In this document: positions 1,054 to 33,034 of the stretch, in pieces
How positions within the stretch are numbered: position 1 is the stretch's first letter
Layout: every line of letters begins with the position of its first letter
Assembly (NCBI GenBank): GCA_049700215.1
Contig: JBNAVT010000013.1
Location: forward strand, 17,278-50,311
Reading direction: 5' to 3'
Length of the DNA: 33,034 nucleotides
DNA from: Thermoproteota archaeon
GTDB lineage: Archaea > Thermoproteota > EX4484-205 > JAAOZP01
Made by a program: the position numbers and the translations under genes
Notes under the pieces: generated by a model
Databases searched by the model: none
The model's input: only the letters and a program-made list of their open reading frames with translations
Told to the model about the DNA's origin: nothing

Positions 1054-2106
1054 ATGATGAGGAGCACGGATAGGGCGTTCTATGTTTCTCTCGACGCGTT
1101 GAAAAGCCGGGAATCCGTGGAGCACGCGGTATCGGAATGGGTTGAAACCGGTGTGAACAGGATCTACCTGTTGACTAAGCGTTCAGACGGTGTTACGTAT
1201 AGAAGCAGGATTGCAAGGTCAAGGGTTGAAGGCGAGTTTGACGCTTTCGCAGAAACAGTGGGGCGCGCGAAGGATGCTGGGATAGAGGTCCACGCATGGT
1301 TCTGCTGCTATATTGAGAGCGTTAGGGAACCCAGCGAATACCTGAGGACGCATCCTGAGGCTCTGCTTGTAAACAGGCTTGGAAAAACGAATCTGGAGGA
1401 GCCTACGTGGAGCACGGTTGACACCCGTTACAGCACTTACTGGGTTTGCCCAAGCCACACTGGGTACCGCCAGTACTTAACGTCCCTTATGAGGGAAGTG
1501 GTTGAAAACTATCAGGTTGACGGGATTCATCTCGACTATATAAGGTATCCTGAAGCAGTTGAGGGAAGATACTATTGTTACTGCCGTAGATGCAGGGAGA
1601 AGTTTAAAGAGGAATACGGGTATGAGCTTCCAGCCAACGATGTTATTAAAAACAGGTATTATGTTTCAATACTTTGTGAAAACGTCACGGATTCCGTTAG
1701 GGAGTTTTCAAGCCTGGTGCACCGGATGGGTAGGAAAATATCAGCGTATGTTTTCACCGACTACGTGACGGCTATTGAATCCTGCTACCAGGATTGGCCC
1801 TACTTCACCAGGTTTCTCGACTTCCTCTGCCCAACTACCTACGAGGTTTCTCCGGATCACGTGAGGACGCTGGTTCACAGGGCTAGGAGCGTCATGCATG
1901 AGGGGTGTGCGCTGACACCGGTTGTGTTATCGTAGCGCGCGCGCTCTAGGGAGGGTGGTAGAAGGTGGAGCAGGGACAGGACTCCTGAATACGTGTCATC
2001 GGCGGCTAGAGCATGCTTGGAGAGCGGGGCTGACGGGGTTGTTTTCTTTCTCTATGACTCTACGCCGCCTGAAGTCTTAAAAGCCCTGAGGTCTCAGGCT
2101 TTTTAA
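1054..2106 (+). pseudogene. Glycoside hydrolase-like family 10 (DUF187/GHL10) TIM-barrel protein interrupted by an in-frame TAG at 1933-1935
   Basis: GIEVHAW, W-V-C-P and DGIHLDYIRYP motifs. After the TAG the same frame continues for 56 codons, including GADGVVFFLY (last barrel strand), to TAA at 2104-2106. Confidence 0.75.
1933..1949. repeat. TAG-(CG)n motif copy (TAGCGCGCGCGCTCTAG)
   Basis: Read directly; supplies the amber that interrupts the GHL10 gene. Confidence 0.9.
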
Positions 2107-5390: not shown

Positions 5391-6077
5391 TCAGCCTTGG
5401 CTGGAGAGCCTCATCCTTACTTCCTCAAGGTCCTTAACAGTGTCTATAGACTTCCAGTATGCTTCAGCCTCAAAATATTTCCTCAGCAATCCTTCTCCAG
5501 CCAGCCTTGGGAAAACCAGTTTCTCAACATCACCCTCCTCATACTCTAGAAACCTGTGTTTAAGCCCACCGTCTATCAGGTAGATGCCGGCGTTAATATA
5601 GTGTGGCAGCACTGGTTTCTCCTCGAAACCCGTTATCTTCTCCCCGGAAACCTGGACGACGCCGTAGGGCGACCTTAGGCTTGTCAGAGCCATGCTCACC
5701 GTCCCAGGCTTCCACTCCGATATCATTCTAGACAGGTCTATGTCGGTGACGATGTCGCCGTTCATCACGAGGTACAGGTCTGACTCGACACTGCTCAAAA
5801 GGCTGTTGATAGCGTACAGCGTGCCCCTAGGCTTGTCCTCAACAATATAGTGGATTCTAACGCTCCTCCAGTTTTCCCCATATCTCTTAACCAGCTTCTC
5901 ATGCTGGTAGCCCGCCAGCAGGTAGACGTTCGAGATGCCAGCGTGCTTCATCTGCATTATCAGCCTGTCTAGGATCGTAAGGTTCCTACCTATCTCCAGC
6001 AGCGGCTTCGGAACATTGTCTGTCAGAGGCCTCAGCCTTTTCCCAAGGCCTCCGCAGAGCACTCCGCCCACGATCAT
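5391..6077 (-). CDS. Sugar-phosphate nucleotidyltransferase (NTP_transferase family)
   Basis: LCGGLGKRLRPLT..PKPL, NGD, FEEKP and INAGIY motifs. Confidence 0.9.
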   Translation of the reverse strand: MIVGGVLCGGLGKRLRPLTDNVPKPLLEIGRNLTILDRLIMQMKHAGISNVYLLAGYQHEKLVKRYGENWRSVRIHYIVEDKPRGTLYAINSLLSSVESDLYLVMNGDIVTDIDLSRMISEWKPGTVSMALTSLRSPYGVVQVSGEKITGFEEKPVLPHYINAGIYLIDGGLKHRFLEYEEGDVEKLVFPRLAGEGLLRKYFEAEAYWKSIDTVKDLEEVRMRLSSQG

Positions 6078-6189
6078 CCTGAGGATTCGGGGGTGAGCAG
6101 GGTGGTTAAAAACTTCTCTCCCACGGATTCTTGAAACCAGTGTTAGCCTTGAGGCGAGCAGGCGAGGCAGGCTGGCGTTTCACATGCTT

Positions 6190-6665
6190 AAGCGCGCGAT
6201 CGTGGAGGAGGAGTTCAGGGGGAGAATGCTTGGAGAGGAGCCTGTGAAACACTGGCTTGAAACAAGGTTCAAAGAGGCTTCGGAGTTCGCTCCCCTCGGG
6301 GTTGTTTTCGACACTATAGAGGTTTCAGTAGGCTGGAACAGGGCGGTAAGTCTCTACCGAAGCCTTGTTGAAGCGATGCGGGCTGTTAAGGGAATGCTCT
6401 CCGCATCCGCTCATGCTTCACACTTCTACCCTCAGGGCGTCTGCTTAGCGCGCGCCTAGGCGCGCGCACCGGAGAAGTATTACAGCGACGTGTGGGACGC
6501 TGCGATGAAGACTACTCTCGAAAACGGCGGGTCGATAAGCCACCACCACAGCGTCGGCAGGCAGAGAAGAAGATGGCTTAAGGATGAGCTCGGCCCTGCC
6601 CTCGACATTCTCAAAAAGGGTTAAGACTGCTCTAGACGATAAGGGTTTGTGAACCCGGGGGTGAG
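6190..6665 (+). pseudogene. Remnant of an FAD-linked oxidase (alkyl-DHAP synthase/GlcD-like), C-terminal domain only
   Basis: DTIEVSVGW, HASHFYPQGVC, then past an in-frame TAG: PEKYYSDVWDAAM...GGSISHHHSVGRQR. Further frameshifts precede KTALD..NPG. The N-terminal FAD-binding domain is absent. Confidence 0.8.
6446..6467. repeat. TAG-(CG)n motif; contains perfect 20-bp palindrome GCGCGCGCCTAGGCGCGCGC (6448-6467)
   Basis: Read directly. Confidence 0.9.
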
Positions 6666-6707
6666 CCTAAGGCAAGCTGGAGCAGAGCCTTGAGAAGGCT
6701 TCTTTAA

Positions 6708-10092: not shown

Positions 10093-13000
10093 TTGTCAAC
10101 TTTTGAACAGACAATGAGCAGATTAGAAGCCGGTTACAGGTCCGTTAAGCGTCTGGGGAAAGCGTGGGCCGGAATACTCGTCGCGAGCATGATGCTCCTG
10201 CTCACACCTCTACTGCAGCCAGCCCCCCTGCAGGCTGGAGTAACCAGCCCGAGGGTCGTGCTCTACACTCCGACTCAAAACGGCAACCTGTTTACCGTCG
10301 AGGGGTTTGCAAGCTTCACCATCCCCCCTGGGCAGCCTAGTCAATACCATGTTCAAGTAGTATGGGAGCACGAGGGGGAGCACGAGGGCACGGTTGTTTT
10401 CCAGAACGATTCAGCGGAGCTCCCTCCGCTGAGGGACATGGGGGGAGGGAAATACGAGTTTAATTTCACCGATTCTCAAGCGTTGAACACGGGTGGAGAA
10501 TGGATCGTAAGGGCTAGGCTCTACCACCAGCGGCCCCCTGGGAACGATAATCAGGCAGACGCTTTCGCGACGATCATAATCGAGGCTTTCACCGTGAGCG
10601 TCACCACTGAGCCGGAGGGCTTGAGCATAACTGTAGACGGGGCTGTCTACACTTCCCCGCAAACCTTCACCTGGCTAAGCGGCACTGTGCATACGATCGG
10701 CACCGTGTCGCCGCAGCTTGGGGACGGCACGATTTACACTTGGGTTTCCTGGAGCGACAGCGGGGGAATCAGCCACACTATTGCAGCGACTGGCGACGCT
10801 GTCTACGTCGCCTACTTTAGGAAGCAGTTCTCAGTATGCTTCAGTCAAACAGGCCTCGACGATTCTGCAACCGGGACTGTTGTCACAGTTAACAGTGTTT
10901 CTAAAAGCATGAGTGAACTACCGTTCAGCAACTGGTATGACGAGGATGCTTCAATAAGCTATGGCTACGCTCCCATCGTGGAAAGCTCTGAAACAGGGAA
11001 ACGTTTCAGCCTCCACTCCATCACGGGGCCCGCGTCACCCTTCAGAGTCACCGCTCCCACTCTCGTCACCGGAAACTATGTTATGCAATACTGCTTGAAC
11101 GTTGGAACAGAGCCGGAGGGCCTGGCGGCTATTCCAGGGGGAGGATGGTATGACGCGGGCTCCTTCGTCACTTTAACCGCTCCCGGAGAAATACTTGTTT
11201 CACAGGGTGTTCGCTACAGGTTCAGCCATTGGAGCGTCGACGGAGCGTCGCAGGGCAGCGGGGTCAACCAGGTTACTGCGAAGATGGACATGCCGCACAC
11301 GGCGATAGCCCACTACGTTACTCAATACTACTTGTCTGTAGACTCCCCACACGGGGAGCCTAGCCCGGAGAGCGGATGGTTCGACGCTGGAACAGTGATA
11401 ACCGCGTCAGTAACCTCACCCTGGCCTGTTGATGCCGTCGACACCCGGAGCTTCTGCACCGGGTGGACCGGTACGGGAAGCGTCCCGCCCTCTGGAGCAG
11501 ACACTACAGTAACCTTCACTATCGACGCGCCTTCAAGCATAACCTGGGCTTGGAAAACCCAGTTCCGAGTCGTCTTCACCCAGACGGGCGTGGGAGACGA
11601 CTACACCGGGGTGGTGGTGACTGTAGACGGCGCCGACTACGGGAGGGAGGGACACGCAGCCTGGTGCGACGCTGGGGCAAGCATCGTCTTCACCTACAGG
11701 AGCCCGCTGGTTGCCGCAGCCAACCGGAAGCAGTACGTGCTGACAGGCGTCGACGCTTCCACACCCCTGACTGTCACAGGGCCTGTCACGGTCACAGGCA
11801 GCTATAAAACACAGTACTACGTGGAGGTTTCCACGAGCCACGGAACCGTCAGCCCGGAGAGCGGATGGTTCGACGCGGGTTCAACAGTGGAGATAGCCGC
11901 CGCCGCGCCTCCGACGGTTGAAGGCGAGCGCTTCACCTGGCTGGGATGGGTGGGAACCGGAGCCGGCTCCTACACGGGCATGGAGAACCCTGCTCAAATA
12001 ACTGTTAACAGCCCGATTAGCGAGACAGCCTCCTGGGCACACCAGTATTATCTGACTGTCGACTCGCCCCACGGCACTGTCGGCGGCGGAGGCTGGTATG
12101 ACGAGGGCTCGACAGCGTACGCTACAGTAGCGCCGCTTACGGTAGACGGGCCTGACGGTGCACGCTACGTCTTCACGCATTGGAGCGGCGACGCATCTGG
12201 AACAATATCGCCTTCAAACCCGATCACGATGGACAGGCCTAAGACGGCAGTAGCCTGCTGGAAAACACAGTTCAGCATCGTCTTCACTCAGGAAGGCTTA
12301 GACGGGACAGCAGCCGGGACGGTTGTCACGATAGACGGTTCAGCAAAAACCTTCAGCAGCCTTCCTTTCACAGCTTGGGTTGACAACGGGGCTTCAGTCG
12401 GCTACGTTTTTGAAGAAGTTGTTTCAAGCAGCGCCCCGGGTAGACGGTTCAGGCTTAACAGTGTAAACGGGCCGGCTTCACCCGTAGTCGTCACAGCCCC
12501 CTTAACCGTAACAGGCAGCTACGTTGCTCAATACGAAGTCACCTTCGCGCAGAGCATGCTTGACGATTCTGCAACCGGGGTTGTAGTGACGGTGGGCGGC
12601 GTCGGGAAGACGATGGCTGACCTTCCTTTCACAGGCTGGTTTGACAGCGGGGCGACATACTCCTACAGCAGTATTGTCCCAAGCACGGAGCCGGGTAAAA
12701 GGTTCAGGCTGGAGAGCGTAACCGGGCCGGCTTCGCCGATAACAGGCCCCGGCACGGTTGCAGGCGTCTACGTGCCGCAGTACAGGCTGGTCTTCACACA
12801 GACAGGTTTAGACAACACTGTAACCGGGACTGTCGTCACGGTTAACGGTGCTCCGAAAACCATTTCGGAAACACCGTTCGCGACAGACTGGCTTGACCAG
12901 GGTTCCCTGGTTTCCTTCGAGTACTCCGACCCTGCGGCAAGCCTGGTTGAAGGCAAGCGGTTTAGGCTCGTGAGCGTGAGCCACGCTTCCCCGCTGACAG

Positions 13001-16000
13001 TCACGCAGCCCGCTACAGTGACCGGCAACTATGTTGCACAATGGCTGGTCGCCTTCACGGTTAACCCGCCTGGCGCTGGAGCAACTGTTCCGTCCGGGGC
13101 AGACTGGTATGACGCCGGCGCCCAGGTCAGCGTCTCAGCCGAAGCCAGCGCGGGATACTCTTTCTCAGAATGGAGCGTGAACACCCCGTTAATAACCGTA
13201 GCAGACGCTTCATCGAAGCAGACTATCGTAACCGTAAACGGCCAGGGCACTGTGACAGCATGCTTCACACCTTTCTACACCATCTCCTTCACCCAGGCTG
13301 GTTTACCGCCTGGAACAGAGTGGAGCGTAACCTTCAACGGGGCTACGAAGTTCTCAACCGCCAGCATCATTGTCTTCAGCGACATCCTCCCCGGAGACTA
13401 CTCGTGGAGCGTTTCGACGCCTATCTATGCGGACCCGGGTGTGAGATACGTGGCTTCACAGTCTTCCGGAACAGTAAGCGTGCCCTCGCAGCTGACGCAG
13501 ACAATAGTTTTCACAGCCCAGTACAGGGTTGCAATATCATGGTCTGGTCTCGGCGCCGACGCCGACGGTGGGAAAGTGGCTACGATAACCGTGGGCGGCA
13601 CCATCTACGTCAGGAATGCTGGAGAAGCTTTCTACGAGGAGTGGGTTGACGCTGGAACCACCGTGGGCTATTCTTACGAGGAGTTCGCATCAACCACGGT
13701 TGATGGGAAAAGGTATAGGCTTTACTCCGTCTCCGGAAGCTCTGGAAGCATCTCCCACGACTTCGGACCTGTTTCGGAACCGGTTTACGAGACAGCTTAC
13801 TACAGGGCTCAATACTACATTGAGGTTGTCAGCGCCCACGGCAGCCCAACGGCCTCAAGCTGGGTTGACGAGGGAAGCAGCTTCACCGCCTCGGTGACAA
13901 GCCCGGCTGAAACCGTGGTTAACGATCACCAGTGGGTTTGCACAGGCTTCAGGGTTGACGAGAACCCTGTTCAAGAGGGTGTGGGCCATACTTTCGAGAG
14001 CGTGGAGGCGCCGCACACCATAGTGTTCTACTGGAGGCAGCAGTTCTGGATACAGGTGAACAGCGCCCACGGTTCTCCAACACCCTCCCAGTGGGTGGAC
14101 CAGGGTGGAAGCCTCGCTGTGAGCGTAGCCTCGCCCGCGGACGAGTCCGGCGGGTCCAGGTTCAGGTGCACAGGCTACACGCTCGACAGCAACCCGCCGG
14201 TTGAAGACGGGAGCACGAGCCATGTTTTCACGAACGTTCAGAGCGCTCACACCATTACTTTCAACTGGATCATCCAGTACAGGGTTACTTTCTACACTAA
14301 TCCGGAGGGCGGGAGCATAACCGTGGGAGGAGTAGTTAAGAACAGTGGGGAGAGCGAGTTTTACGACGAGGGGGCAGCCGTCCCAGTTGCTCCCGGCGCT
14401 ACCGCAGGCTACTTGTTCTCAAGCTGGACAGTAACCGGCGGAGTGACTGTGGAAGACCCTGCTAGCGAGACGACCGTTATGAGGGTTGGCGGAGCGGGAA
14501 GCCTTTCAGCCAACTTCGTCGTAAACACTGTTTCAATAACCGTTACTTCAAGCCCGGTTACAGGCGGAGGCTTCATCATGGTTGACGGCACCCCCTACGC
14601 CACGCCGGCGGCATTCACATGGGTAATCGGCTCAACCCATGTTCTGGAGGCTGTTTCAACAGTCTCAGGCCCAGCGGGCACCAGGTACGTCTGGACAGGT
14701 TGGAGCGACGGCGGGGCTCAGAGCCATGTCTACACTGTTCCCAGCACGCCTGAGACTTTGACGGCATTCTTCAAAACCCAGTATTATCTGAACGTGGTTT
14801 CACCCCACGACACGCCCGGGGGCTCAGGCTGGTATGACGAGGACTCGACAGCGTACGCAACCCTTGAAGCTGGAAGCGTGGTGGAGAACGGTGTGCAATA
14901 CTTGTTCACCGGCTGGAGCGGCGACGCGTCTGGAACCAGCTTAATAAGCAACCCGATGATGATGAACGGGCCTAAGACTGCTGTGGCGAACTGGGTGGCG
15001 GGAGCATACACCGTCACCTTCGACAAGAGCCCCAGGCAGGGAGTAATCACGGTGGACGGCACTGTTTACACGAGCCTACCGGTGGTTCTCCAATGGGTTC
15101 CAGGATCATCCCACGAGGTGGTTGCTCCGGAAACCGAGGGAGCTGGAGGCACAAGGTATGTTTTCAGAGAGTGGTCAGACGGCTCAACCCTAGCGAGCAG
15201 AACAATCGTTGCAGACACGCCTGGAGCAGTCTACACTGCTTACTACAACGTGCAGCACAGGCTGACAGTACGTTCTGAACACGGCGTAACCACGGGCTCC
15301 GGATGGTACGACGAGGGTGTTGAAGCAGTCTTCTCCGTCTCGCCCACCGTAGTCAGGGACGAGTCGGAGGGAGTGGAGTACAGGTTTAAAGGCTGGGTTG
15401 GAAGCGGCGCCGGCGCATGCTACACTGGGCCTGATAATCCTGCGCGAGTATTAATGACCGGGCCTGTTGAAGAAACAGCGGAATGGGAGCCGACAATGTA
15501 CTATTTGAAGGTTGTCAGCATGTACGGCGACCCGTATGGGAGCGGCTGGTATCCTGCAAACTCTGAAGCGAGATTCGGGGTTAACACGCCTGTGAACCAT
15601 GGGAACGGGACGCTTAGAGTGTTCCTAGCCTGGTCTGGAGACATAAGCCTCAGGGAGCCTGCTGGAACCCTGTTGATGGTTAAGCCTTACGCTGTAATAG
15701 CCGGCTGGGATACTCAATACCTCGTGGTCTACAACACTACTGCTCCAAACGGGGTTCTGCTATCCATTCCGAGAGTGCCTCAAACCCTGCCCCCTGGCTT
15801 CAACGTTTACGCCGCGTACTACCCCGCTGGCAGCAGCGTTGAAGTCGGGCCGGCGCCTGAAACCGTGTACGGGGCTGAGGACGTGAGATACTGTTTCGAA
15901 GCCTGGGCGATAGACGGGGAGCCTGCTGCTTCAAGCCTGAACCTGACCTTCACCGTAGATAAGCCTCTAAACGTCTCAGTAATATACGGGATCGAGATAC

Positions 16001-16635
16001 TTCTTACTGTAAACGTCGTAGGCGTGAGCCAGCCGTACACGGTTAGGCTGACGGTGGAGAAGAGCCCAGCCCACGTGTTCGACATCACCCCCGCGTCACC
16101 GTTCAGAGAATGGGTTAGAAAGGATTCTACAGTAACCCTCACAGTCTCAAGCCCGAACAAGATTGGCCGCGGCGAGTGGGCTGTTTTCAGAGAATGGGCT
16201 GGGGACGTTCAAGGGGTTCAGAGAACAGTCTCGTTTAAAGCCTCCAGCCCAACAACTGTGAACGCGGTGTTCTTCGCAGTCAACCCGGTGGCGCAGTCAA
16301 TACCCTTCTCGCTTCTAGCCGGCTTAGCGTCAACAGTCGTCTCACACTTAATCCGGAGGCGTGGAGGAGGGCGGCGGCGCTTCCGGCGCTACTCTCCAAC
16401 CCTGGCAGTAATGACGCTAACAGCTGTGCTGGCTGCGGCTGCAATAGTCAGCTCCGCCGTGGCCGCGGGCTACGGGATAGACGCGTGGGAGCTCCCCGAC
16501 TTCACAAACTGGGCTGTAGTGTTCACTGCTGTTGAGGCAGCCGTCTTCCTGGCGGCTACGCTGCTCGCCACAAGACTAGCCTACCCGAGGAAGGTTGAGA
16601 TCCCCGCGATCTACCCGAACCCCTACGGTGTTTAA
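10093..16635 (+). CDS. Giant (about 2180 aa) cell-surface protein of tandem beta-sandwich repeats (InlB-B/Flg_new-like and thermopsin-tail-like) with signal peptide and C-terminal TM helices; may start at ATG 10114
   Basis: Hydrophobic N-terminus; recurring QYYL.V.S.HG...G.GWYD.G, FxQxGLD..ATG.VVTV.G and ITVDG..Y..P..F.W...WSDG units; one GLPPGTEWSV unit; 2-3 hydrophobic helices at the end. Confidence 0.85.
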   Translation: MSTFEQTMSRLEAGYRSVKRLGKAWAGILVASMMLLLTPLLQPAPLQAGVTSPRVVLYTPTQNGNLFTVEGFASFTIPPGQPSQYHVQVVWEHEGEHEGTVVFQNDSAELPPLRDMGGGKYEFNFTDSQALNTGGEWIVRARLYHQRPPGNDNQADAFATIIIEAFTVSVTTEPEGLSITVDGAVYTSPQTFTWLSGTVHTIGTVSPQLGDGTIYTWVSWSDSGGISHTIAATGDAVYVAYFRKQFSVCFSQTGLDDSATGTVVTVNSVSKSMSELPFSNWYDEDASISYGYAPIVESSETGKRFSLHSITGPASPFRVTAPTLVTGNYVMQYCLNVGTEPEGLAAIPGGGWYDAGSFVTLTAPGEILVSQGVRYRFSHWSVDGASQGSGVNQVTAKMDMPHTAIAHYVTQYYLSVDSPHGEPSPESGWFDAGTVITASVTSPWPVDAVDTRSFCTGWTGTGSVPPSGADTTVTFTIDAPSSITWAWKTQFRVVFTQTGVGDDYTGVVVTVDGADYGREGHAAWCDAGASIVFTYRSPLVAAANRKQYVLTGVDASTPLTVTGPVTVTGSYKTQYYVEVSTSHGTVSPESGWFDAGSTVEIAAAAPPTVEGERFTWLGWVGTGAGSYTGMENPAQITVNSPISETASWAHQYYLTVDSPHGTVGGGGWYDEGSTAYATVAPLTVDGPDGARYVFTHWSGDASGTISPSNPITMDRPKTAVACWKTQFSIVFTQEGLDGTAAGTVVTIDGSAKTFSSLPFTAWVDNGASVGYVFEEVVSSSAPGRRFRLNSVNGPASPVVVTAPLTVTGSYVAQYEVTFAQSMLDDSATGVVVTVGGVGKTMADLPFTGWFDSGATYSYSSIVPSTEPGKRFRLESVTGPASPITGPGTVAGVYVPQYRLVFTQTGLDNTVTGTVVTVNGAPKTISETPFATDWLDQGSLVSFEYSDPAASLVEGKRFRLVSVSHASPLTVTQPATVTGNYVAQWLVAFTVNPPGAGATVPSGADWYDAGAQVSVSAEASAGYSFSEWSVNTPLITVADASSKQTIVTVNGQGTVTACFTPFYTISFTQAGLPPGTEWSVTFNGATKFSTASIIVFSDILPGDYSWSVSTPIYADPGVRYVASQSSGTVSVPSQLTQTIVFTAQYRVAISWSGLGADADGGKVATITVGGTIYVRNAGEAFYEEWVDAGTTVGYSYEEFASTTVDGKRYRLYSVSGSSGSISHDFGPVSEPVYETAYYRAQYYIEVVSAHGSPTASSWVDEGSSFTASVTSPAETVVNDHQWVCTGFRVDENPVQEGVGHTFESVEAPHTIVFYWRQQFWIQVNSAHGSPTPSQWVDQGGSLAVSVASPADESGGSRFRCTGYTLDSNPPVEDGSTSHVFTNVQSAHTITFNWIIQYRVTFYTNPEGGSITVGGVVKNSGESEFYDEGAAVPVAPGATAGYLFSSWTVTGGVTVEDPASETTVMRVGGAGSLSANFVVNTVSITVTSSPVTGGGFIMVDGTPYATPAAFTWVIGSTHVLEAVSTVSGPAGTRYVWTGWSDGGAQSHVYTVPSTPETLTAFFKTQYYLNVVSPHDTPGGSGWYDEDSTAYATLEAGSVVENGVQYLFTGWSGDASGTSLISNPMMMNGPKTAVANWVAGAYTVTFDKSPRQGVITVDGTVYTSLPVVLQWVPGSSHEVVAPETEGAGGTRYVFREWSDGSTLASRTIVADTPGAVYTAYYNVQHRLTVRSEHGVTTGSGWYDEGVEAVFSVSPTVVRDESEGVEYRFKGWVGSGAGACYTGPDNPARVLMTGPVEETAEWEPTMYYLKVVSMYGDPYGSGWYPANSEARFGVNTPVNHGNGTLRVFLAWSGDISLREPAGTLLMVKPYAVIAGWDTQYLVVYNTTAPNGVLLSIPRVPQTLPPGFNVYAAYYPAGSSVEVGPAPETVYGAEDVRYCFEAWAIDGEPAASSLNLTFTVDKPLNVSVIYGIEILLTVNVVGVSQPYTVRLTVEKSPAHVFDITPASPFREWVRKDSTVTLTVSSPNKIGRGEWAVFREWAGDVQGVQRTVSFKASSPTTVNAVFFAVNPVAQSIPFSLLAGLASTVVSHLIRRRGGGRRRFRRYSPTLAVMTLTAVLAAAAIVSSAVAAGYGIDAWELPDFTNWAVVFTAVEAAVFLAATLLATRLAYPRKVEIPAIYPNPYGV
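11362..11876 (+). repeat. Identical 26-bp intragenic repeat AGCCCGGAGAGCGGATGGTTCGACGC (11362-11387 and 11851-11876)
   Basis: Read directly; encodes SPESGWFDA in two repeat units. Confidence 0.85.
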
Positions 16636-19485: not shown

Positions 19486-20520
19486 TTGCAGCATGCGAAG
19501 CTCATCCTGGGAGTGTTTTTAATCGCCGTGGGTGCCGGACTAGTGTTGGGCTTCCTGCCCGGGGAAACGCCATACCCGCAAGAGGAGCATCAGGCTGCCC
19601 CGAGGGAGGCTCGGGCGGAGTATGTTGAGAAACGCAACTATACTTACCTGCTGAGCCAGAGCTTCCTGCTTAGAAACCCGTCTAATAACACTGTAGCCGA
19701 CCTGGTTTACATGTTTCTCCCGGTTAACGCGAGCAACCAGTTCGTCAGGCTCCTGGAGACGAGTCTAGAGCCATTATACTGGAAGAACAGCGGCGACGGC
19801 GGCGTGATACTCGTATACAACGTCAGCCTGCCGAGCCGTGAAACCACTTGGCTGAACGCTACTCTTCAAGTAACGGTTGAAAAATACAGGCTTCTCGCCG
19901 AGAACCTTCCCTGGCTCAACTATTCTCAGGTTGAGAAGAACACTGGGGGTAAGAGATACTGGGCTGTTGAAAACCAGACATATGTTTCAATAGCCCAGGA
20001 CATCGGCCTAGACGCCAGGGACCCTCTGGAAGCGTGTAGAAACATTGGGAAATGGATTCTAGCCAGGCTTGACTACCAGCCGACTTGGAGAAGAGGCGCT
20101 GAGCACGCGCTCGTCACCAGGGGCGGCAGGCTGATCGTCTACGGGGACTGCGAGGAGGTTGCCGACGTTTTCGTAACGCTTGCAAGAATACTTGGAATAC
20201 GTTCGAGAGTTGCTCACGGCCTCTATCTGCTTGAGGACAAGGATGTTGTGACTATGTGGATCAGGAGGACTGAAACAGGTTACGAGACTTCGGACAACTG
20301 GGGCGGGCACGCTTGGCCGCAGATATATGTTTCCAAGGCGGGATGGGTTGACGTCGAGCTTCTTGAAGGGGGCACTGTTAAAATAGGAGACTTCTCCCAG
20401 TATCATGTTAAATACGGCTTCGAGGAGAAAAGCTTCCTCGGCTCAACCATGCTTTACTGCCAGGCGATGTACCTGGAGACAGACTTCTTCCACTTCACCT
20501 TCAGGAGGGTTGAGGGTTGA
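19486..20520 (+). CDS. Transglutaminase-like domain protein, N-terminally anchored
   Basis: GDCEE..DVFVTLAR.LGI.SR...G, HAW.QIY and GWVDVE (Cys-His-acid triad). Confidence 0.85.
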   Translation: MQHAKLILGVFLIAVGAGLVLGFLPGETPYPQEEHQAAPREARAEYVEKRNYTYLLSQSFLLRNPSNNTVADLVYMFLPVNASNQFVRLLETSLEPLYWKNSGDGGVILVYNVSLPSRETTWLNATLQVTVEKYRLLAENLPWLNYSQVEKNTGGKRYWAVENQTYVSIAQDIGLDARDPLEACRNIGKWILARLDYQPTWRRGAEHALVTRGGRLIVYGDCEEVADVFVTLARILGIRSRVAHGLYLLEDKDVVTMWIRRTETGYETSDNWGGHAWPQIYVSKAGWVDVELLEGGTVKIGDFSQYHVKYGFEEKSFLGSTMLYCQAMYLETDFFHFTFRRVEG

Positions 20521-21590
20521 AAAACTCCTGGAAAAACCTGGCAGTAATCATCGTAGCAGCCTCCCTATTGTTGAGAACCCTGCCCGCTAAGCCGCAGGAG
20601 AACTATCTGACTGGGCTCAACATGGAGGTTGAGTTCGCTGAAAACGGGGTTGCCAGGGTAACTTTGAAGCAACACCCGTTCGACGCATCCGGCAGAAGCC
20701 TTATTTCGAACACTGAGGTCGTGGAGAGAGTAATAGGCGAGGAGGACTCGATCATAAGCCTGGTCCTGCTCTTCTTCACGACGGATCCTTCTAAAACATC
20801 CTACGTGGTCCACTCGCATTCAAAGCTGGACGCTGGCGAACAGGTCTTATGCAACACGGGTACACCCGGCGAGATGAAGAGGTTCGAAGGCGCTGTGACG
20901 CTTACCGTCGACATACTTCTGAACACTACTAGCAGCCTAATACCGCTCGGAGGAGACGTTTACCAGATTGTTGTCACAGACTATTTCACGCTCACAGACC
21001 CGCGCAGCTGGATAGACGTTATGGATTTCAGGTTCACCGGGAGCGTTAGCCTCCTGAACTTTTCAGTAGACCCCTCCTGGGCTAAGCCTCCTGCAGTAGC
21101 GAGCCCAGCGCGGCTGCAATGGTTGAACATGAACGAGGCGGATGCCCCGGACAATTATGTTCTCACCCTCCGAATACCCGGGGTCGTTCTCTCGACAACT
21201 CCCCTAAGGCTTAGGGCGGAAGTGTCTGGAGCAAGGTTTTCAAACGCGACCTCAACCCTCCGGGTGGGTGTTAGAAACACTGGGGGCGACGAGGGAGTGT
21301 TCACCGTAGTTCTGCTCGAGGAGGGTTTTGAACAAGCCAGGAAGATAAGCCTTAAGCCGGGTGCTGAGGCCTGGGTAAGGTTCCCGGTTCACGCGCCGGA
21401 CGGTGGGGAGCTAGTGGTGAAAGTATACGGGGGAGGAGAGCAGCTGGACGAACAAAGGCTAACCGTCGCGGTTGAGAAGCCGGTGGAAAACCGGTTACCG
21501 ATGCTCAGCGCAATAGGCTTAATCCTGATGGTTATCGGCGGCTTCACGATACTTCTTTACCTCGGCGAGAGGCTTAAGCGTCAACGATAG
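20517..21590 (+). CDS. Secreted, membrane-anchored hypothetical protein with CARDB-like Ig domain
   Basis: Signal peptide, V.VRNTGG.EG..TV motif, C-terminal TM helix; overlaps the upstream stop by 4 nt. Its stop is the TAG of a motif copy. Confidence 0.7.
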   Translation: MKNSWKNLAVIIVAASLLLRTLPAKPQENYLTGLNMEVEFAENGVARVTLKQHPFDASGRSLISNTEVVERVIGEEDSIISLVLLFFTTDPSKTSYVVHSHSKLDAGEQVLCNTGTPGEMKRFEGAVTLTVDILLNTTSSLIPLGGDVYQIVVTDYFTLTDPRSWIDVMDFRFTGSVSLLNFSVDPSWAKPPAVASPARLQWLNMNEADAPDNYVLTLRIPGVVLSTTPLRLRAEVSGARFSNATSTLRVGVRNTGGDEGVFTVVLLEEGFEQARKISLKPGAEAWVRFPVHAPDGGELVVKVYGGGEQLDEQRLTVAVEKPVENRLPMLSAIGLILMVIGGFTILLYLGERLKRQR

Positions 21591-21599
21591 CGCGCGCTT
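21585..21599. repeat. TAG-(CG)n motif CGATAGCGCGCGCTT (identical 15-mer at 25053-25067)
   Basis: Read directly. Confidence 0.9.
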
Positions 21600-23581: not shown

Positions 23582-25008
23582 TGCGCCGCCCCTTTTCGTT
23601 TTCAGACGGCTTGAGACGTTTCGTCGGAAAAGCGCGCGCGCTCACCCTCACCACCATAGTGCTTGTAAGCGCCGCGGTCTTCGCATACTGTACTTCAAGC
23701 TTGGCTGCGGGATGGGCTGACCCGCCTGTAAGGCTTCGAGACCCGGGAACGCTGGGCGTCACAGTAAATCTTTACGATGACGATACAAGCGCGAGAGTGG
23801 ACGTGACTAGCCAAGGAGTCCTTGCGCGTGTCCGGAGAAGCGCCTTCATCTGGGACGACTACTCCGACGATCCTTTCACCAGCGGGAGGCTCACCGTTAA
23901 CGATGGAGCATGGAGCTGGAACCCGGCGGGATACGTGGCGGTAACAGCAAGCTATTTAGCCCAGACTTGGGGAGGCGCGTGCGTCGCCTACTATTCCACC
24001 AGCCCACCTGCTGGAGCCAGCGTGATACACGTGCTTGTGAAGGAACTTCACATTACGAATGCGAACAATCAGTACAGTGGGCTTATCACTGCTAATTCAC
24101 CCGTGCTTTTCAACCTGATTGGGTATCGCCGTGGAACCGGGTCCAACAGGTTTATAACTATAAGGAGGTTTTCAGGCGCCTGGTCCACTCTCGTCACTGC
24201 TTCATTAACACTGGCTGAGAACACTTGGTTCATCCTGCTGGGAAGGAGAGAATACTCCGGATCAGTTGGTTTAACCGTCTATGACTCTGCTGGCGTGCAG
24301 CAAGGCAGCCCTATAGGCGCCGCGGACACAGCGTTCCAGGTTAATCTCGTCGGAGTCGGCGTGTACAGGGCAGGGGTCACCATAACGGCGCGTTTCGACG
24401 ACTTCGTTGCCTGCGCCGACGCTAACCCTAGCTTCGTAAACGTCACGGGGCTTGAAGAAGGCTGGACGGTCTATCTCTACGATGAAAACGGGAACCCTGT
24501 AAACCAGGCTACAGCAGGCCAGGATGGGAAGGCGAGCCTAAATGTTTTAACCAGGCCCATAGTCAGGAATGCCCGCTTCGAAATAAGGCTTGGAGAAACA
24601 ATCATCCTGCCCCCGCAATCGTTCAGCGAGGTTGTCGGCGGCGACGTTTACGAGTGCAGCATAAAAGACATGGTTATCCTAGGCTTTCAAAACCAGGATT
24701 CTAAGGCTTACAGCGTCTACCTTAAGGTTGAAAGCATCCAGGTTCCGCCGGGATACTCCGGCTCGATAAACCTGTGGGTTGGGCCGGATGCTGGAACAAC
24801 ACCTATTCAAATAGTTGGAGACAGTGTTCTAGTGGACACTACTTCAGAAATAAACTTGAATCCATCTGATACTGGCCATATTCACAGCACATTCTCCCTG
24901 AGCCCGGCACCGCCCTCGCAAATAGTGCTTTCTCTCAGCCTCCACTACTATATTCCAAGCTCCAAGGTTGAAGTAGAGTATCCTGTTGAGGTGAGTATGC
25001 ACAGGTAG
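23581..25008 (+). CDS. Secreted protein, possibly a TasA/archaeal-bundling-pilin-like subunit with inserted beta-sandwich domain; true 5' end uncertain
   Basis: Hydrophobic signal segment, then PPVRL...TSARVDV; beta-rich body; C-terminal ILGFQNQD.KAYSVYL...IQI.GD...LHY...VEYPVEV; no C-terminal anchor; lies upstream of a signal peptidase. Confidence 0.6.
   Translation: MRRPFSFSDGLRRFVGKARALTLTTIVLVSAAVFAYCTSSLAAGWADPPVRLRDPGTLGVTVNLYDDDTSARVDVTSQGVLARVRRSAFIWDDYSDDPFTSGRLTVNDGAWSWNPAGYVAVTASYLAQTWGGACVAYYSTSPPAGASVIHVLVKELHITNANNQYSGLITANSPVLFNLIGYRRGTGSNRFITIRRFSGAWSTLVTASLTLAENTWFILLGRREYSGSVGLTVYDSAGVQQGSPIGAADTAFQVNLVGVGVYRAGVTITARFDDFVACADANPSFVNVTGLEEGWTVYLYDENGNPVNQATAGQDGKASLNVLTRPIVRNARFEIRLGETIILPPQSFSEVVGGDVYECSIKDMVILGFQNQDSKAYSVYLKVESIQVPPGYSGSINLWVGPDAGTTPIQIVGDSVLVDTTSEINLNPSDTGHIHSTFSLSPAPPSQIVLSLSLHYYIPSSKVEVEYPVEVSMHR
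23631..23642. repeat. Motif core, 12-bp palindrome AGCGCGCGCGCT
   Basis: Read directly; immediately before the signal-peptide hydrophobic segment. Confidence 0.8.
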
Positions 25009-28475: not shown

Positions 28476-28630
28476 CCCTCTTCACGAAAATCCCTAAACC
28501 CTGGCACGCTCGTCCCCAAGCCGCCAAATCAGAAAAACCCCGGGGAAGAACAGTCTCGCAAGCATCTTGAAAAGAATTCGTAAACCAGGCTATTAACGGC
28601 TGGAAACCCTTGTTTCAAGGAGGATTCAGC

Positions 28631-28730
28631 CTAGCGCGCGTTTCTCGGAAAAACAAGGATTAGCTCAGAATCGTTCAAGACGGTTTCTAGTGGAGGGCTT
28701 GAGGCTGTTGCTCCAAAGTTAGCGCGCGCT
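28631..28730. repeat. Two motif copies (CTAGCGCGCG 28631-28640; TAGCGCGCGCT 28720-28730) bracketing a 79-bp segment
   Basis: Read directly. Confidence 0.85.
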
Positions 28731-28925
28731 CCACATGGTCGAAGCTTTCTGAAGGAGTTCTTTCGCACTCCCCCGTCAAGGAACAGCCCGAGGAAGACGC
28801 CGGTGTCAAAGAGAAGCACTCAGTCGACGCTCCTCCAAGCCTCGTGCTGCAGCCCTACAGAATTAGATTCCAACCTACCACAACGCCTCAACTTTTTCCA
28901 GTCAACCCTACCTGACGCTGTGAAG
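28731..28925 (-). pseudogene. Remnant vapBC-like toxin-antitoxin pair (antitoxin tail plus PIN-domain N-terminus)
   Basis: ...RVDWKKLRR...SVGLQHEAWRSVD* abuts (TGA-GTG at 28822/28819) MLLFDTGVFLGLFL, a PIN-type hhhDT start, which breaks off at the motif at 28730. Confidence 0.55.
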
Positions 28926-28999
28926 TGCCCAGCCGCCCGTGTTTCAAAACGAAACCCGTCAAGATGCGGAAAAGCCGGAATAAGGATTAGGAATACTTG

Positions 29000-30334
29000 T
29001 TAAACCCATCCCCTGGCCTTCATAGCCTCAACAACCCTTCTAACAGCAACAACGTAGGCAGCCGTCCTAGGGTCAATACCCTTATCCTTAAACTCCTTCA
29101 AGGCTTCAACAACCTCCCAGAAAGCCCTAGTCATCTTAGCGTCAAGCCTCCTGTAAACCTCCTCATAATCCCAGTAGTACCTCGAAAGATTCTGAACCCA
29201 TTCGAAGTAGGAGACAGTCACACCCCCAGCGTTAGCCAGAAAATCCGGAACGACGAAAACCCCCTTACCGTGAAGAACCTCGTCCGCCTCAGGCGTCGTC
29301 GGACCGTTAGCAAGCTCCAGAACAACCCTAGCCTTAACCCTGCCAGCGTTACCCCGGGTTATCTGGTTTTCAAGAGCAGCCGGGATCAAAACGTCAACCG
29401 GAAGCTCCAAAACCTCCTCGCTACTAATCCTCCTCGAAGACCCATAGTTAACAACGCTCCCAGTCTCCGCCTTAACCCTGCTAACCCTGCCATACGGCAG
29501 CCCATCCTCGTTGAAAACCCCTCCCCGGGAATCACTCACCGCAACAACCCTCACGTTTTTAAAAAGCCTCGTCGCCAAGAAATGCGCAAGCGAGCCAGCA
29601 TTACCATAACCCTGAATCGCAACAGTCACTACATCACCCCCGGGAGAAGCATCAGGAATATTCGAAAGCACTTGAGGAGGCAAGTAAAGCCTAGACTCGT
29701 CAACCTCAAGACCAAGCCCGAGAAACCTGGCAGCCTCCCTTAAGACAAACATGCCACCCCTCGCAGTAGCATCCTCCCTACCCTTCGAACCACCCGTCGC
29801 AAGCAGCTTACCCGTAATAACCTCAGGCACATTATACCCGGCAATCACTGAAAACTCATCCATCATCCAAGTCATCACCTGAGGATCAGTGTAAACATCC
29901 GGAGCAGGAACATCCTTCAACGGTCCCAGGAATCCGGAGAGAGCCCTAACATAAGCCCTAGCAAGCCTCTCCTTCTCGCCAACACTCAGCTTCTTTGGGT
30001 CGCACACAACACCACCCTTCCCACCGCCAAAAGGCAAATCAAGAAGAGCACACTTCCAAGTCATCCAAGCAGCTAAAGCCTTAACAGTATCCAGGTTCTC
30101 CTCAGGATGCCACCTGATCCCACCCTTAGTAGGACCAAGCGCATCATTATACTGAACCCTGAAGCCGGTGAAAACCCTGACAGAACCATCATCCATCTTA
30201 ACAGGAATATTAACAACCAGCGTCCTCAAAGGCTCCCTAAGCAAAGAACGCGTAGCCTCATCCAAACCCAAAACCCCAGCACACCTATCAACCTGCCTCT
30301 GCGCATTCCTAAACGGATTCAGCTCCTCAGTCAA
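29000..30334 (-). CDS. gdhA: Glutamate dehydrogenase (Glu/Leu/Phe/Val dehydrogenase family)
   Basis: [51 protein letters not shown] and [20 protein letters not shown] motifs. Confidence 0.95.
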
Positions 30335-30355
30335 GCCACAAAGCCCGCAAAAATG

Positions 30356-30372
30356 GAATATATAAACTTTTC
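30356..30372 (-). promoter_or_regulatory. BRE/TATA of gdhA (leaderless spacing)
   Basis: Minus strand GAAAAGTTTATATATT about 25-35 nt upstream of the TTG start. Confidence 0.6.
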
Positions 30373-30476
30373 CTTAAATCCCATTTAAACATATCGGAAA
30401 AAACATCCATCAAGCATCGCCAGGACACTGGCACACGTTAAATACGAGGAGGCAAATATAGATTTAGCAGGTGGAA

Positions 30477-30639
30477 ATGCCATTCGAGGAAAGAAGTGAA
30501 AGGTTGGCGAAGTTTCCGATTTACGACGCGCGCACGCGGCGAAGTAAAGCTGGTCGTGGATACTGAAAACAGGCTGGAGCCAATACGCCTGGAGAAAATA
30601 TTGTTCCTCAGGGAAGATTACCCGGAGCTATTCACCTAA
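30477..30639 (+). pseudogene. Small gene remnant with a frame break at a (CG)n motif
   Basis: AGGTGG RBS and ATG (MPFEERSERLAKFPIY), then CGCGCGCACGCG, then a different frame GEVKLVVDTENRLEPIRLEKILFLREDYPELFT*. Confidence 0.5.
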
Positions 30640-31052
30640 CATAGCACGCGCGGGGACATGGGTTTGAGGGGGTGGGGTGGCTAGTGCGCGCTAGTGGATG
30701 CCACAGGATTGCATGATAGGCGAGAGCGATAAAACAATAAGGCCGGAACTCTACATTGCATGAGGTATTTTTGGGGCATTGCGCCATGTGGTTAGCGTTA
30801 GGGGGAAGCAGGAAAATCGTCGCGACCAATAATGTTCCTAAACACCCATAGCGCGCGCGCGCTAGAGTTATATGGAACGTAAAGAGCACGCCCGAATCTT
30901 TTTATATACAATTTTATGACTCCAGCGCACGCTAAAATGCTTGGGGTGCTACTGCTAAAGCCACTGATGCACTTCTTTATGCTAGGGAAAGTTTGAGGTT
31001 GTTGGAAGATTAGAAAGGAGAAGGGAGTTGTACAAATTAGCCCGTAGCGCGC
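30527..31052. repeat. Cluster of six motif copies (30527, 30642, 30681, 30849, 30924, 31045), including perfect 16-bp palindrome TAGCGCGCGCGCGCTA at 30849-30864
   Basis: Read directly. Confidence 0.85.
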
Positions 31053-31190
31053 CTTTATTTAAGTCTTAATCAATAGTTTATAAAAAGCTTCATTCCACAT
31101 ATCCCCCTTCAGTCCCTCCAGAGTACGTGAAATCTGACGAAGACTTTTCTCTTCCTCCTCCTTATTTTTCGGAAACTCGAATAGCCGGCA

Positions 31191-31517
31191 TTAATTGCCG
31201 TTAATTAAAATCAGGCTTGGAACAGCCCAAATCTCCGAAATTAAAACTCCGCTGTCCTTATTCTCCTCTTTCAGCTTTCTCAGCAAGTTCTTGTTATCTG
31301 AGCAGACTATGACTCTCTTAAACCTCTCCAAGGCGCTTTTGATGTTCTTCTCAGCATCGGACCTTCCAAGTTCTATGTTTATCGCAGTCTTGAGAGAAGG
31401 TATTTCTACGTCAGGCTTCTCCTCCCCTATCTTAGCAACCCTGCAAACCAGCCCCCTACCTGTAAGCTCATTGACAATCCAGTAGACGTAATACTCGTGC
31501 TTGATGCTCGGCCTCCT
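31191..31517 (-). pseudogene. 5'-truncated PD-(D/E)XK nuclease-like domain
   Basis: Not in the ORF track (no start codon). Reads RPSIKHEYYVYWIVNELTGRG...KPDVEIPSLKTAINIELGRSDAEKNIKSALERFKRVIVC and begins exactly at the (CG)n motif 31516-31527. Confidence 0.6.
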
Positions 31518-31633
31518 ACGCGCGCGCCTGAGCCATACTTGTTCTTGTTAGGTTTAACGTTATGCTGGATTTTTATCTCTTGAATTAAAAGTTATATATA
31601 TTTCCAGTAGCTAATAAGAACTATGGTGAACAA

Positions 31634-31813
31634 ATGCCTGTGAATGAAGATCAATCAGCCAAACTCTTTGAATTTTTGTCAAAACTCTTGAGACTTATTG
31701 AGAAACATCCAGAAGAAATAAGTAAGTGGTTAACAATGAAAGAGGGGAGAGAAATATTTTCGCTGGCATTCTCCTTCTCTCCGTATGCTTTTAAAAAGAA
31801 AAGATGGGAGTGA
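31634..31813 (+). CDS. Small hypothetical protein (59 aa)
   Basis: GGTGA RBS and upstream TTATATATA; MPVNEDQSAKLFEFLSKLLRLIEKHPEE...KKKRWE*; below the track length cut-off. Confidence 0.55.
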   Translation: MPVNEDQSAKLFEFLSKLLRLIEKHPEEISKWLTMKEGREIFSLAFSFSPYAFKKKRWE

Positions 31814-31817
31814 GAAA

Positions 31818-31976
31818 TTAATTTGCCGCTTTCTCTGCTAATTTTTTAGCAAGTTCCTCGGTTATTCTCAGAGCAGCAGTCCCGCAGCAACTGTGGCCCA
31901 TCCTCCAGCCACCGCCTGTAAGCGCAGTAATCAAAGCATACATCCCTATTTTGGCAGCTTCTTTCTTTGCACCCAG
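31818..31976 (-). CDS. Small Gly/Ala/Lys-rich amphipathic peptide (up to 52 aa; CTG start at 31976 or ATG at 31943)
   Basis: GAKKEAAKIGMYALITALTGGG...TAALRITEELAKKLAEKAAN*; AAAACTTATATT on the minus strand about 25 nt upstream. Confidence 0.4.
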   Translation of the reverse strand: MGAKKEAAKIGMYALITALTGGGWRMGHSCCGTAALRITEELAKKLAEKAAN

Positions 31977-32102
31977 TTATAGGCTTTAGGTAGAAAAATA
32001 TAAGTTTTACCATATTAGGTTGTAGATTTTTAAAAGGCTAATTTCGGTTTTTAGCGTAGGCTAATCCCTTTTTTGATTTGTAGTTATCTAAAGGCTTAAA
32101 TA

Positions 32103-32363
32103 TTACCAACTTCCTTCACTCTTCGCACAATTCTCACATAGCAACATCCTGGTTAGCATGCCCTGCCTCCAGACCTCAACCCTTCTGACATGGTTGAAGC
32201 AAAATGCTTTCTGACATTTCTCGCAAACCCTATAACAGTATATGCAAGTCCTTTTACCGCAGATGTTGCATTTGCCCTCTATCTGGTCTCTCCTGACTAT
32301 TGACTTGCAGGTTTCGCATTCCCAAAGCTCGTTGCAAGTCTTCATGAAACGTTGAACACTCAT
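32103..32363 (-). CDS. Cys-rich multi-zinc-finger small protein
   Basis: CETC, CNIC, CIYC, CEKC, CFNH and CENC in 86 aa. Confidence 0.75.
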   Translation of the reverse strand: MSVQRFMKTCNELWECETCKSIVRRDQIEGKCNICGKRTCIYCYRVCEKCQKAFCFNHVRRVEVWRQGMLTRMLLCENCAKSEGSW

Positions 32364-32456
32364 GCTGAGAAAACTCTCCCTCCTGCAATCTAGAAGAGAA
32401 TGCGTTTAACACGGAAAAAGATTTAAGCATCAGGCTTCAGTTTATTATTGAGCCTT

Positions 32457-33034
32457 ATGGAAGAGGCGAAAGAGATAGAGGAGTACCTTGAATGCATAGA
32501 CCCTTTCGAAATTCCTTTAGACAAGTATAGGAAAATTATTAACGATGATAAATATGGCAGCTTAGCGGAACAGATAATAACCAAGAGACTGGAGGAGCTT
32601 CATGGAAGCTGGATAAAGAAGAAGCTGAGAGAGACGAAAGCTCAGTCGATAGTTGTCTGTGATGGAAGAGTGATCTACTTTTCAAAAAACAGGTATGAGC
32701 CTCCTGACGAGAAGCTGAGAGAAATGGAGGAAGAGACGGGTAAGCCGTGCTACGTGATAACGGGTGAGCCTTTGATAGAAGAGCGAAGCGGCTGGTCTTA
32801 TTTGAGCAAAAGCGACTATTACCCTACCGTCGAAATCTACGTGGGGAGCATCAACTGGGAAGATGAGGACATATTCAAGAAAGGTGTTAAGGTTAGGAGC
32901 GATTTCGACACTGGAAATCCTGAATATACTGTTTTAGATGAGAGATTGTGCAGAAGCATAGAGAAGGAAACATCAATGAGAAGGAGAGGATACCATCTTG
33001 GGATACTTTATCTTTATTTCCCAAGGATGATGAA
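32457..33034 (+). CDS. 3'-truncated protein: DUF5678-like N-terminal region fused to a retropepsin-like (clan AA) aspartic protease domain
   Basis: Not in the track (runs off the window). Open frame from ATG 32457: ...SIVVCDGRVIYFS...EEETGKPCYVI...DYYPTVEIYVG...VRSDFDTGNPEYTV, with the DTG catalytic motif. Confidence 0.65.
   Translation, partial: MEEAKEIEEYLECIDPFEIPLDKYRKIINDDKYGSLAEQIITKRLEELHGSWIKKKLRETKAQSIVVCDGRVIYFSKNRYEPPDEKLREMEEETGKPCYVITGEPLIEERSGWSYLSKSDYYPTVEIYVGSINWEDEDIFKKGVKVRSDFDTGNPEYTVLDERLCRSIEKETSMRRRGYHLGILYLYFPRMM

Follow-up and report, generated by a model that had tools for sequence, protein, structure and literature searches.

Alternating-GC palindromes at deletion junctions of a hot-spring archaeon suggest a break-and-rejoin process that has not been described

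In a stretch of 33,034 nt from the genome of a Thermoproteota archaeon (the window), a short palindrome of the form TA(GC)nTA, or a variant of it, occurs seven times within about one kilobase, between positions 30527 and 31528. The genome of the window is referred to as G000 and its relatives by number, G002 being the closest. Comparison with these relatives finds the same palindrome, called the tract in what follows, at places where DNA has been lost from the chromosome. The tracts are derived scars which replace ancestral sequence, and the alleles that still hold the sequence bear no tract at their ends. On balance it is probable that each TA(GC)3-6TA tract marks a break, the loss of between 0 and ~2 kb, and rejoining across a short bridge of fixed, self-complementary sequence. 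The flagged stretch itself can, with moderate confidence, be regarded as dispensable DNA after at least seven such events, in which the remains of an operon from the side of the glutamate dehydrogenase (GDH) gene lie together with remnants of other genes. The remnants that do not belong to the operon probably derive from mobile genes. This reading of the tract points to a way of cutting and rejoining DNA that has not been described.

Tracts in place of lost DNA

The G002 sequence compared with G000 amounted to 505,597 nt, of which 347,335 nt aligned. The alignment contains 59 collinear junctions, and 25 of these are clean indels, defined by a gap of no more than 35 nt in the short allele and a long allele of at least 100 nt. 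Ten of the 25 have a short allele in which TA(GC)3-5TA stands exactly where the long allele has 122-1988 nt, and in an eleventh a degenerate copy, TAGCGCGAGCGCTA, replaces 9.9 kb. A random position outside the long open reading frames (ORFs) lies within 20 nt of a tract with a frequency of 3.9%, and at p = 0.079, about double this frequency, the binomial tail for 10 of 25 is still 1e-5. The missing segments encode ordinary chromosomal genes, including those for a glycoside hydrolase, an AOR-like protein and a DJ-1-like protein.

A tract was found at either end of the long allele in none of the ten tract-bearing clean indels, which excludes simple recombination between two tracts and equally a duplicated target site. 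Nor is any of the 25 clean indels an insertion into a tract. Within aligned DNA, tracts occur as pure insertions, six in G000 and one in G002, and the others replace 8-36 nt; the loss of DNA at a tract therefore ranges down to zero. The seven pure insertions are not clean duplications of TA, 2-5 nt being replaced in them. TA adjoins the tract on 13 of the 20 scar sides: on eight of these the corresponding position of the long allele already has it, and on the others it is new. The junctions look like the outcome of a homology of 1-2 nt between the broken end and the TA(GC)nTA unit.

The direction of change could be read from outgroups in seven cases, and all seven show the tract allele as derived. 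The segments of 784 and 332 nt that are absent at window positions 23632 and 21590 are present in three to five other congeners, and the segments of 1750, 1988 and 222 nt that are absent in G002 are present in three to four. Where 464 nt of G002 are absent at position 43516 of G000 contig C5, three other congeners have a segment of ~455 nt, and the 129 nt replaced by a tract in G009 are present in G008, in G000 and in four distant congeners. Since the outgroups hold the long allele free of a tract, the tracts are deletion scars.

Scars accumulate where DNA is dispensable. One such place is the flagged stretch, and another is a metalloprotease gene which is intact in G002 and whose orthologue on contig C55 of G000 is a pseudogene with three tract replacements inside it; a fourth tract stands just beyond the alignment of that pseudogene. 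The window holds the following scars and tracts outside the flagged stretch, all without an assigned strand:

21590..21597, no strand: scar, (GC)4 replacing 332 nt present in G002, G009, G007 and G013
23632..23641, no strand: scar, (GC)5 replacing 784 nt (a whole 188-aa gene) present in G002, G007, G006, G010 and G009
6192..6198, no strand: tract where G008 has 1070 nt more
1935..1944, no strand: tract, (GC)5 inside a G000-specific block of 1.2 kb (921-2117); the position is shared with G008, and G002 has only GCGCGC there

The unit in the genome and across the genus

Alternating-GC runs are described as normally suppressed in prokaryotes (PMC4060949). In G000, GCGCGC is the most over-represented hexamer genome-wide, with 876 sites and a ratio of observed to expected of 1.8 under a maximal-order Markov model. 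Of these sites 548 fall in the 14.7% of DNA that lies outside long ORFs; for other GC-only hexamers the proportion outside long ORFs is 10-18%. Around the full set of 608 maximal runs, position -1 is A in 63% and position -2 is T in 41%, with background composition beyond -2. As no flank is conserved beyond TA, the unit is the bare palindrome TA(GC)nTA. Non-ORF DNA contains 53, 31, 90, 20, 2 and 1 copies of A(GC)nT for n = 2 to 7, the expected numbers being 101, 5.6 and 0.3 for n = 2 to 4. The length distribution is peaked at n = 4 and is not geometric, and the other phase, TA(CG)3TA, has no occurrence in non-ORF DNA. The motif is a defined unit and not a random microsatellite.

An extended repeat or a miniature inverted-repeat transposable element was considered as the carrier of the motif and rejected, given that the flanks of the 608 runs are unconserved past TA and that self-BLAST returned no tract-bounded repeat family. 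In a paralogue pair on contigs C11 and C85, a tract stands at one edge only. Intergenic regions of all orientations contain tracts, at 0.92 per kb in divergent, 1.18 in tandem and 1.62 in convergent ones, and their spacing to the starts and ends of genes shows no preference. Whichever strand is read, the palindrome offers the stop codon TAG, and two ORFs of the window, 1054..1935 and 20517..21590, terminate in the TAG of a tract (1933-1935 and 21588-21590, respectively). A scar can by this means supply a truncated gene with an immediate stop. At window positions 6448-6467 two tracts stand back to back (TAGCGCGCGCCTAGGCGCGCGCA), possibly as the result of two events at one site.

Once formed, the tracts change. 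The one-off variants of A(GC)4T across the genome comprise 71 transitions and 37 transversions, although twice as many transversions as transitions are possible. Scars decay by transitions, and such a bias by itself needs no methylation, to which decayed copies in the flagged stretch had been linked in the first-pass annotation. Tract size is variable in the population: the run in one copy of the flagged stretch (M4, listed below) is 2 nt shorter in contigs from the public sequencing run X1, and two contig ends overlap across unequal tracts. The latter are the 5' end of C41 and the 3' end of C69, which are mutually reverse-complementary across a tract that reads (CG)3C in one and (GC)5 in the other. 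Variation in tract size seems to be a cause of assembly breaks. Tracts occur in the last 150 nt of 18 of 170 contig ends, which is a mild excess only.

The spread of the unit was followed by counting TAGCGCGCGC and its reversed control in 17 genomes of the genus and in 44 genomes of other genera. Counts of motif and control were 224 and 6 in G000, 156 and 7 in G008, and 117 and 2 in G002. The motif was found 55 times each in G007 and G009, 33 times in G006, 31 in G010, 13 each in G011 and G013 and 5 in G014, and the remaining seven congeners have 0 or 1. The 44 genomes of other genera mostly have 0-4 copies, and higher counts among them are equalled or exceeded by their controls, except in G037 with 10 against 0. 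Tract-bearing genomes for which a GDH match was obtained have a GDH at least 85% identical to that of G000; G010 and G011 gave no GDH match. The tract process is recent and limited to one sub-clade of the genus.

The seven-copy stretch and the genes around it

The stretch had first been flagged as a motif hotspot, with seven copies set between irregular spacers, without an intact gene, at the edge of an AT-richer island. This description holds. All seven copies of the alternating-GC motif are present (M1-M7 below), with spacers of 27-461 nt; there is no ORF of at least 100 aa between the GDH gene and 31193 (30335-31193); and GC content drops to 0.40-0.42 from about position 31000 to the end of the window, which is the end of contig C13. 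The window has 33 GCGCGC where 9.5 are expected, and none of 100 shuffles reached 33. The densest stretch of 1054 nt for alternating-GC runs in the 2.09-Mb genome begins at 30527, with six perfect runs, a value reached once, and 30335-31194 is the top-ranked region for run number among all regions between called ORFs. The features, in order of position, are:

29000..30334, minus strand: GDH gene, the last gene still syntenic with relatives
30527-30541, no strand: M1, CGCGCGCACGCGGCG, a CGCGCG run joined to native CACGCGGCG; left junction of S1; homology to G006 begins at 30529
30529..30640, plus strand: S1, ~36 codons from the start of an RHH-like gene with homologues in G006 and G009
30642-30653, no strand: M2, TAGCACGCGCGG, one transition off a perfect tract; right junction of S1
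30682-30693, no strand: M3, TAGTGCGCGCTA, one transition off a perfect tract; left junction of S3
30694..30850, plus strand: S3, a 157-nt internal piece of an ETF-alpha gene, 83% identical to G008
30849-30864, no strand: M4, TA(GC)6TA, with the shorter run in the X1 contig; right junction of S3
30924-30935, no strand: M5, CAGCGCACGCTA, one transition off a perfect tract; left junction of S5
30936..31041, plus strand: S5, a ~35-codon internal piece of a PaREP1-family gene
31045-31053, no strand: M6, TAGCGCGCC; right junction of S5
31194..31517, minus strand: S6, the last 108 codons of a DUF87/HerA-like ATPase gene of ~590 aa, whose 5' ~1.45 kb are gone, cut at M7
31516-31528, no strand: M7, TACGCGCGCGCC; junction at which the truncated ATPase gene meets unrelated AT-rich DNA
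31529..33034, no strand: AT-rich island, GC 0.40-0.42, to the contig end, with ORFs that have no Pfam match

That the motifs are real genomic sequence and not an assembly artefact, as had been argued, is borne out by other assemblies. Contigs of run X1 span 30200-31700 in three pieces with 0 mismatches, the (GC)6 run at 30851 being 2 nt shorter in them, and their sole break points in that interval fall in a 65-nt repeat common to contig C55. A contig from a second study (run X2) spans 31093-31556, M7 included, while the gaps in X2 coverage within 30237-31092 carry no information; as X1 may be the very sample behind the window assembly, independent support comes from X2 only.

Boundary alignments and family scans place a homology boundary or a point of gene truncation at all seven copies in 30527-31528. 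In a DNA search of 40 relatives, separate segments match separate places and each match stops at a motif, homology ending within about 4 nt of it; to the right of M7, a match to another contig of the same metagenome begins at 31526. A search of the inter-motif segments had been proposed as a check, and by this comparison the fragments derive from four different genes. The segments labelled S0, S2, S4, S6a and S7 have no homologue in the genome itself or in the relatives' sequence compared. The view that several copies are aged versions of one motif was correct for M2, M3 and M5, each one transition away from a perfect tract, and failed for M1: the G006 homologue shows that the CACGCGGCG half, which had been taken as decayed, is native and part of the coding sequence of the fragment on its right.

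Segment S3 has its homologue inside a glutamate-synthase and ETF operon of ~9 kb, which adjoins GDH in G008 as well as in G003, a distant congener. In G008 this operon is on contig C3 (L014:7790-16596) and comprises Glu_synthase, GXGXG and GATase genes with ETF alpha and beta. The three glutamate-synthase genes of the operon have no tblastn match in G000, so S3 is a native relic and not foreign DNA. G000 has lost the archaeal glutamate-synthase/ETF operon beside GDH, as the comparison of the locus among relatives brings out: present in G008 and G003, it is reduced to the S3 relic in G000. The earlier picture of a foreign element repeatedly cut and rejoined is thus retained in part. The fragments are unrelated and all seven copies sit at junctions, but S3 is of native origin. 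The GDH promoter region (30335-30433) is still alignable to G002, the GDH of which is 95% identical; there an intact metalloprotease gene follows within 300 nt after GDH, and the 3 kb after GDH contain no tract.

A full paralogue of S1 is found on contig C55 of the same genome, where positions 1332-1404 are 94.5% identical. The best match of S5 is in G037, a genome of another family, at 74% identity. The X1 metagenome contains a 513-nt contig of lower depth in which part of S5 (30934-31003) recurs almost unchanged in another context; the source gene of this fragment is still present in the community. On the far side of M7, the ORF that begins at 32448 is a member of a hypothetical family of ~260 aa. 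Relatives of the DUF87 ATPase (31194-31517) and of the 260-aa protein (32448-33034) are found, both sets, on contigs of 4290 and 11590 nt, and it is probable that a single element carries both genes. Pfam gave no match for ORFs of 28500-33034 except GDH, nor for the S1 paralogue, and no search aimed at cas genes was made. A viral origin of the island found no support in IMG/VR, where neither the DUF87 relative nor the 32448 ORF had a relative in scans that reach close relatives only.

Contig C55 (L063) carries NrpR (260-1309) and glutamine synthetase (5977-7440) alongside the paralogue of S1 and the metalloprotease pseudogene with its scars. It was examined as a continuation of the AT-rich island past the contig end, which is not supported: it ends in glnA and is not AT-rich. 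Pieces separated by 38 kb in G002 are joined in this contig, so that a rearrangement or inversion breakpoint lies there.

Mechanism, alternatives and known systems

The mechanism that would best fit the scars begins with a break and a variable loss of DNA, after which the same TA(GC)n tail would be added to both 3' ends, either templated or by reiterative synthesis. As (GC)n can pair with itself, the two tails would anneal; annealing would yield the mode at n = 4, and a slipped register n = 3 and n = 5. A TA or A already present at the break would serve as an alignment point of 1-2 nt. Transition decay, and size change by slippage, would follow. A more specific version, which is tentative, attributes the tails to a lineage-specific, recently gained enzyme system that adds a fixed self-complementary TA(GC)n to both broken ends, the tails then zipping together in a manner independent of Ku and suited to high temperature. 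The tail would in that case be protein- or RNA-templated, by analogy with telomerase or CCA-adding enzymes. Terminal transfer by archaeal primase (PMC3333859) and untemplated synthesis by polymerases (PMC13061963) are the subject of published work. In a bolder variant, a domesticated excisase would actively remove dispensable genes and leave the tract as its mark.

A number of points weigh against the scar reading or restrict it. Fifteen of the 25 clean indels are tract-free, hence other routes of deletion exist, and at the same loci three deletions of independent origin, in G008, G006 and G009, left no tract; the tract process is accordingly one deletion route among several. Polarity was established with 3 of the 10 scars left out, and the window block at 921-2117 has a complex history. 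Non-ORF DNA was defined as DNA outside greedy long-ORF calls made for this analysis, not outside gene-finder calls. To our knowledge, a filler of fixed sequence has no precedent in end joining. No enzyme was identified, moreover, in searches of the 17 genomes of the genus, which are metagenome-assembled, 57-95% complete, and may lack multi-copy elements left unassembled. DDE_3 (PF13358, IS630-type), Y1_Tnp (PF01797, RAYT-type) and the reverse transcriptase domain RVT_1 each gave 0 of 17; Ku (PF02735) and Prim-Pol were not found in G000 (94.6% complete); and the PolX palm gave sub-threshold matches only, which do not track the tract counts.

Among the closest known systems is end joining with filler, whether by non-homologous end joining, by alternative end joining of the polymerase-theta type or with N/P nucleotides. 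In both cases a few extra bases stand exactly at the deletion junction, the deletion is of variable size, and end and insert share a homology of 1-2 nt. The filler of those systems, however, is variable or copied from nearby, whereas here one palindrome with a mode at n = 4 is found at hundreds of sites; and end joining there is Ku-dependent, whereas in this hot-spring archaeon Ku was not detected. De novo telomere addition and CCA addition likewise attach a defined sequence to ends which share only 1-2 nt with it. Telomere addition caps ends, by contrast, whilst here the ends are joined to each other, in a genus in whose 17 genomes RVT_1 was not found. Literature searches, in which supplementary files were not covered, found no description of such scars, and as far as they show a fixed palindromic filler at deletion junctions is apparently undescribed.

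Mobile elements offer two other ways of reading the tracts. Excision footprints of Tc1/mariner/IS630 elements are short palindromes flanked by TA, and the tracts could be footprints of a TA-targeting cut-and-paste transposon with GC-alternating ends, deletions arising from intramolecular hops to a nearby TA before excision. Several features agree with this: the tract is a short palindrome with a length peak at n = 4, TA borders it on 13 of 20 scar sides and pre-exists on 8, and a burst confined to one lineage resembles the invasion of an element. Such a footprint leaves flanking host DNA in place, however, and in ten scars the tract has taken the place of 122-1988 nt of ancestral sequence; two extra steps would be required for every deletion, and the footprint should not survive loss of the DNA that flanks it. 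With DDE_3 in none of the 17 genomes, no tract-flanked repeat family in G000, no insert bearing GCGC at both ends among the 15 tract-free clean indels, and 7 pure insertions that replace 2-5 nt instead of duplicating TA cleanly, this origin is unlikely. Secondly, the tract could be a small site, mobile or used for recombination, either a palindrome of mini-REP type or the target of a site-specific recombinase, which was inserted first and then recombined with a neighbouring copy to delete the DNA between them. Hundreds of short extragenic palindromic copies in one narrow lineage, some of them pure insertions, recall repetitive extragenic palindromes (REPs) and the mosaic elements built from them (BIMEs). 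REPs are described as 20-40 bp long, with a GTAG or CGTC head and associated RAYT transposases (PMC3733652). They are imperfect palindromes, whereas the tract is a perfect GC palindrome of 10-16 nt with TA, it replaces deleted DNA, and the RAYT-type Y1 transposase is in 0 of 17 genomes. Recombination between sites would moreover call for tracts at the ends of the long allele, and none of the 10 has one at either end; each deletion would consume two insertions, and only 7 pure insertions stand against 10 large and ~10 small replacements; and the seven copies of the flagged stretch, 27-461 nt apart, persisted side by side long enough to gather point changes. We regard this account as improbable.

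The remaining alternatives take the tract as a cause, a signal or a record. Z-DNA-forming (CG)n tracts are inducers of deletions, and alternating GC is a classic Z-DNA former. Its normal suppression in prokaryotes (PMC4060949), together with the variation of tract size within the population, would suit pre-existing fragile sites that caused breaks and deletions beside them. Here cause and effect are reversed, however: the tract appears with the deletion. In 7 of 7 cases with known polarity the ancestral long allele lacks it, as do the ends of 10 of 10 long alleles. The tract was absent before the deletion and is thus its product and not its cause, which makes a fragile site very improbable. 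An equally slight chance attaches to a signal under selection, such as an operator, a terminator or a nucleoid site, with the junction position incidental. Enrichment in all intergenic classes, the convergent one most, and a palindrome with TAG on both strands, in which two ORFs of the window end, would agree with a signal; but tracts are not placed at any favoured distance from where genes start or stop, they form de novo within pseudogenes and where genes have been deleted, they decay by point changes, and close congeners that have these genes too lack them. As to a record, the flagged stretch had been likened to a primitive repeat-spacer array, and a repeated motif between short unrelated segments beside an AT-rich island does invite the comparison. 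CRISPR arrays have direct repeats of ~23-50 nt with conserved sequence and regular spacers from foreign DNA. The unit TA(GC)3-6TA, by contrast, is a 10-16-nt palindrome without conserved flanks, and its spacers of 27-461 nt are irregular and partly native: S3 is the operon relic and S1 copies a gene on contig C55 of the same genome. As the same motif is found at ordinary deletions genome-wide, the idea of a CRISPR-like record of foreign DNA is abandoned, its probability being close to nil.

If the tracts are indeed scars of rejoining, hundreds of such events are recorded with one signature, and the rejoining of chromosomes in hyperthermophilic archaea that have no Ku becomes testable. The signature switches on within a single genus, and the gene responsible should be findable by way of close relatives. 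The scars would be natural tags of gene loss, by which deletions can be counted and dated and dispensable DNA revealed, and they would explain assembly breaks or variation at tract sites. There would be practical interest in an enzyme able, at high temperature, to add or join a GC palindrome of fixed sequence, and should the tentative enzyme system exist, a readable barcode would mark every gene loss.

A known type of element in G000 was also considered. There are five TnpB-like (Cas12f1-like_TNB) matches, three of them at contig ends and three with open frames of 104-117 aa, the loci (L071-L075) lying on contigs that include C46, C49, C11 and C60. An IS607-like element, with serine-recombinase TnpA and TnpB, at C19:9975-11679 (L074) is broken: a TTAGCGCGCGCTCA tract stands in tnpA at the frame split, and tnpB is also divided into two frames. 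Being itself struck by a tract, this element was rejected as a source of tracts and is read as a victim.

Two further observations concern other coding sequences. In G002 (C7:13278-14857), a 1578-nt in-frame insert within an ATPase gene at ...GPPGTGK begins with Cys, is absent from G000 and has the look of an intein. In the window, an ORF of 2180 aa occupies positions 10093-16635 on the plus strand.

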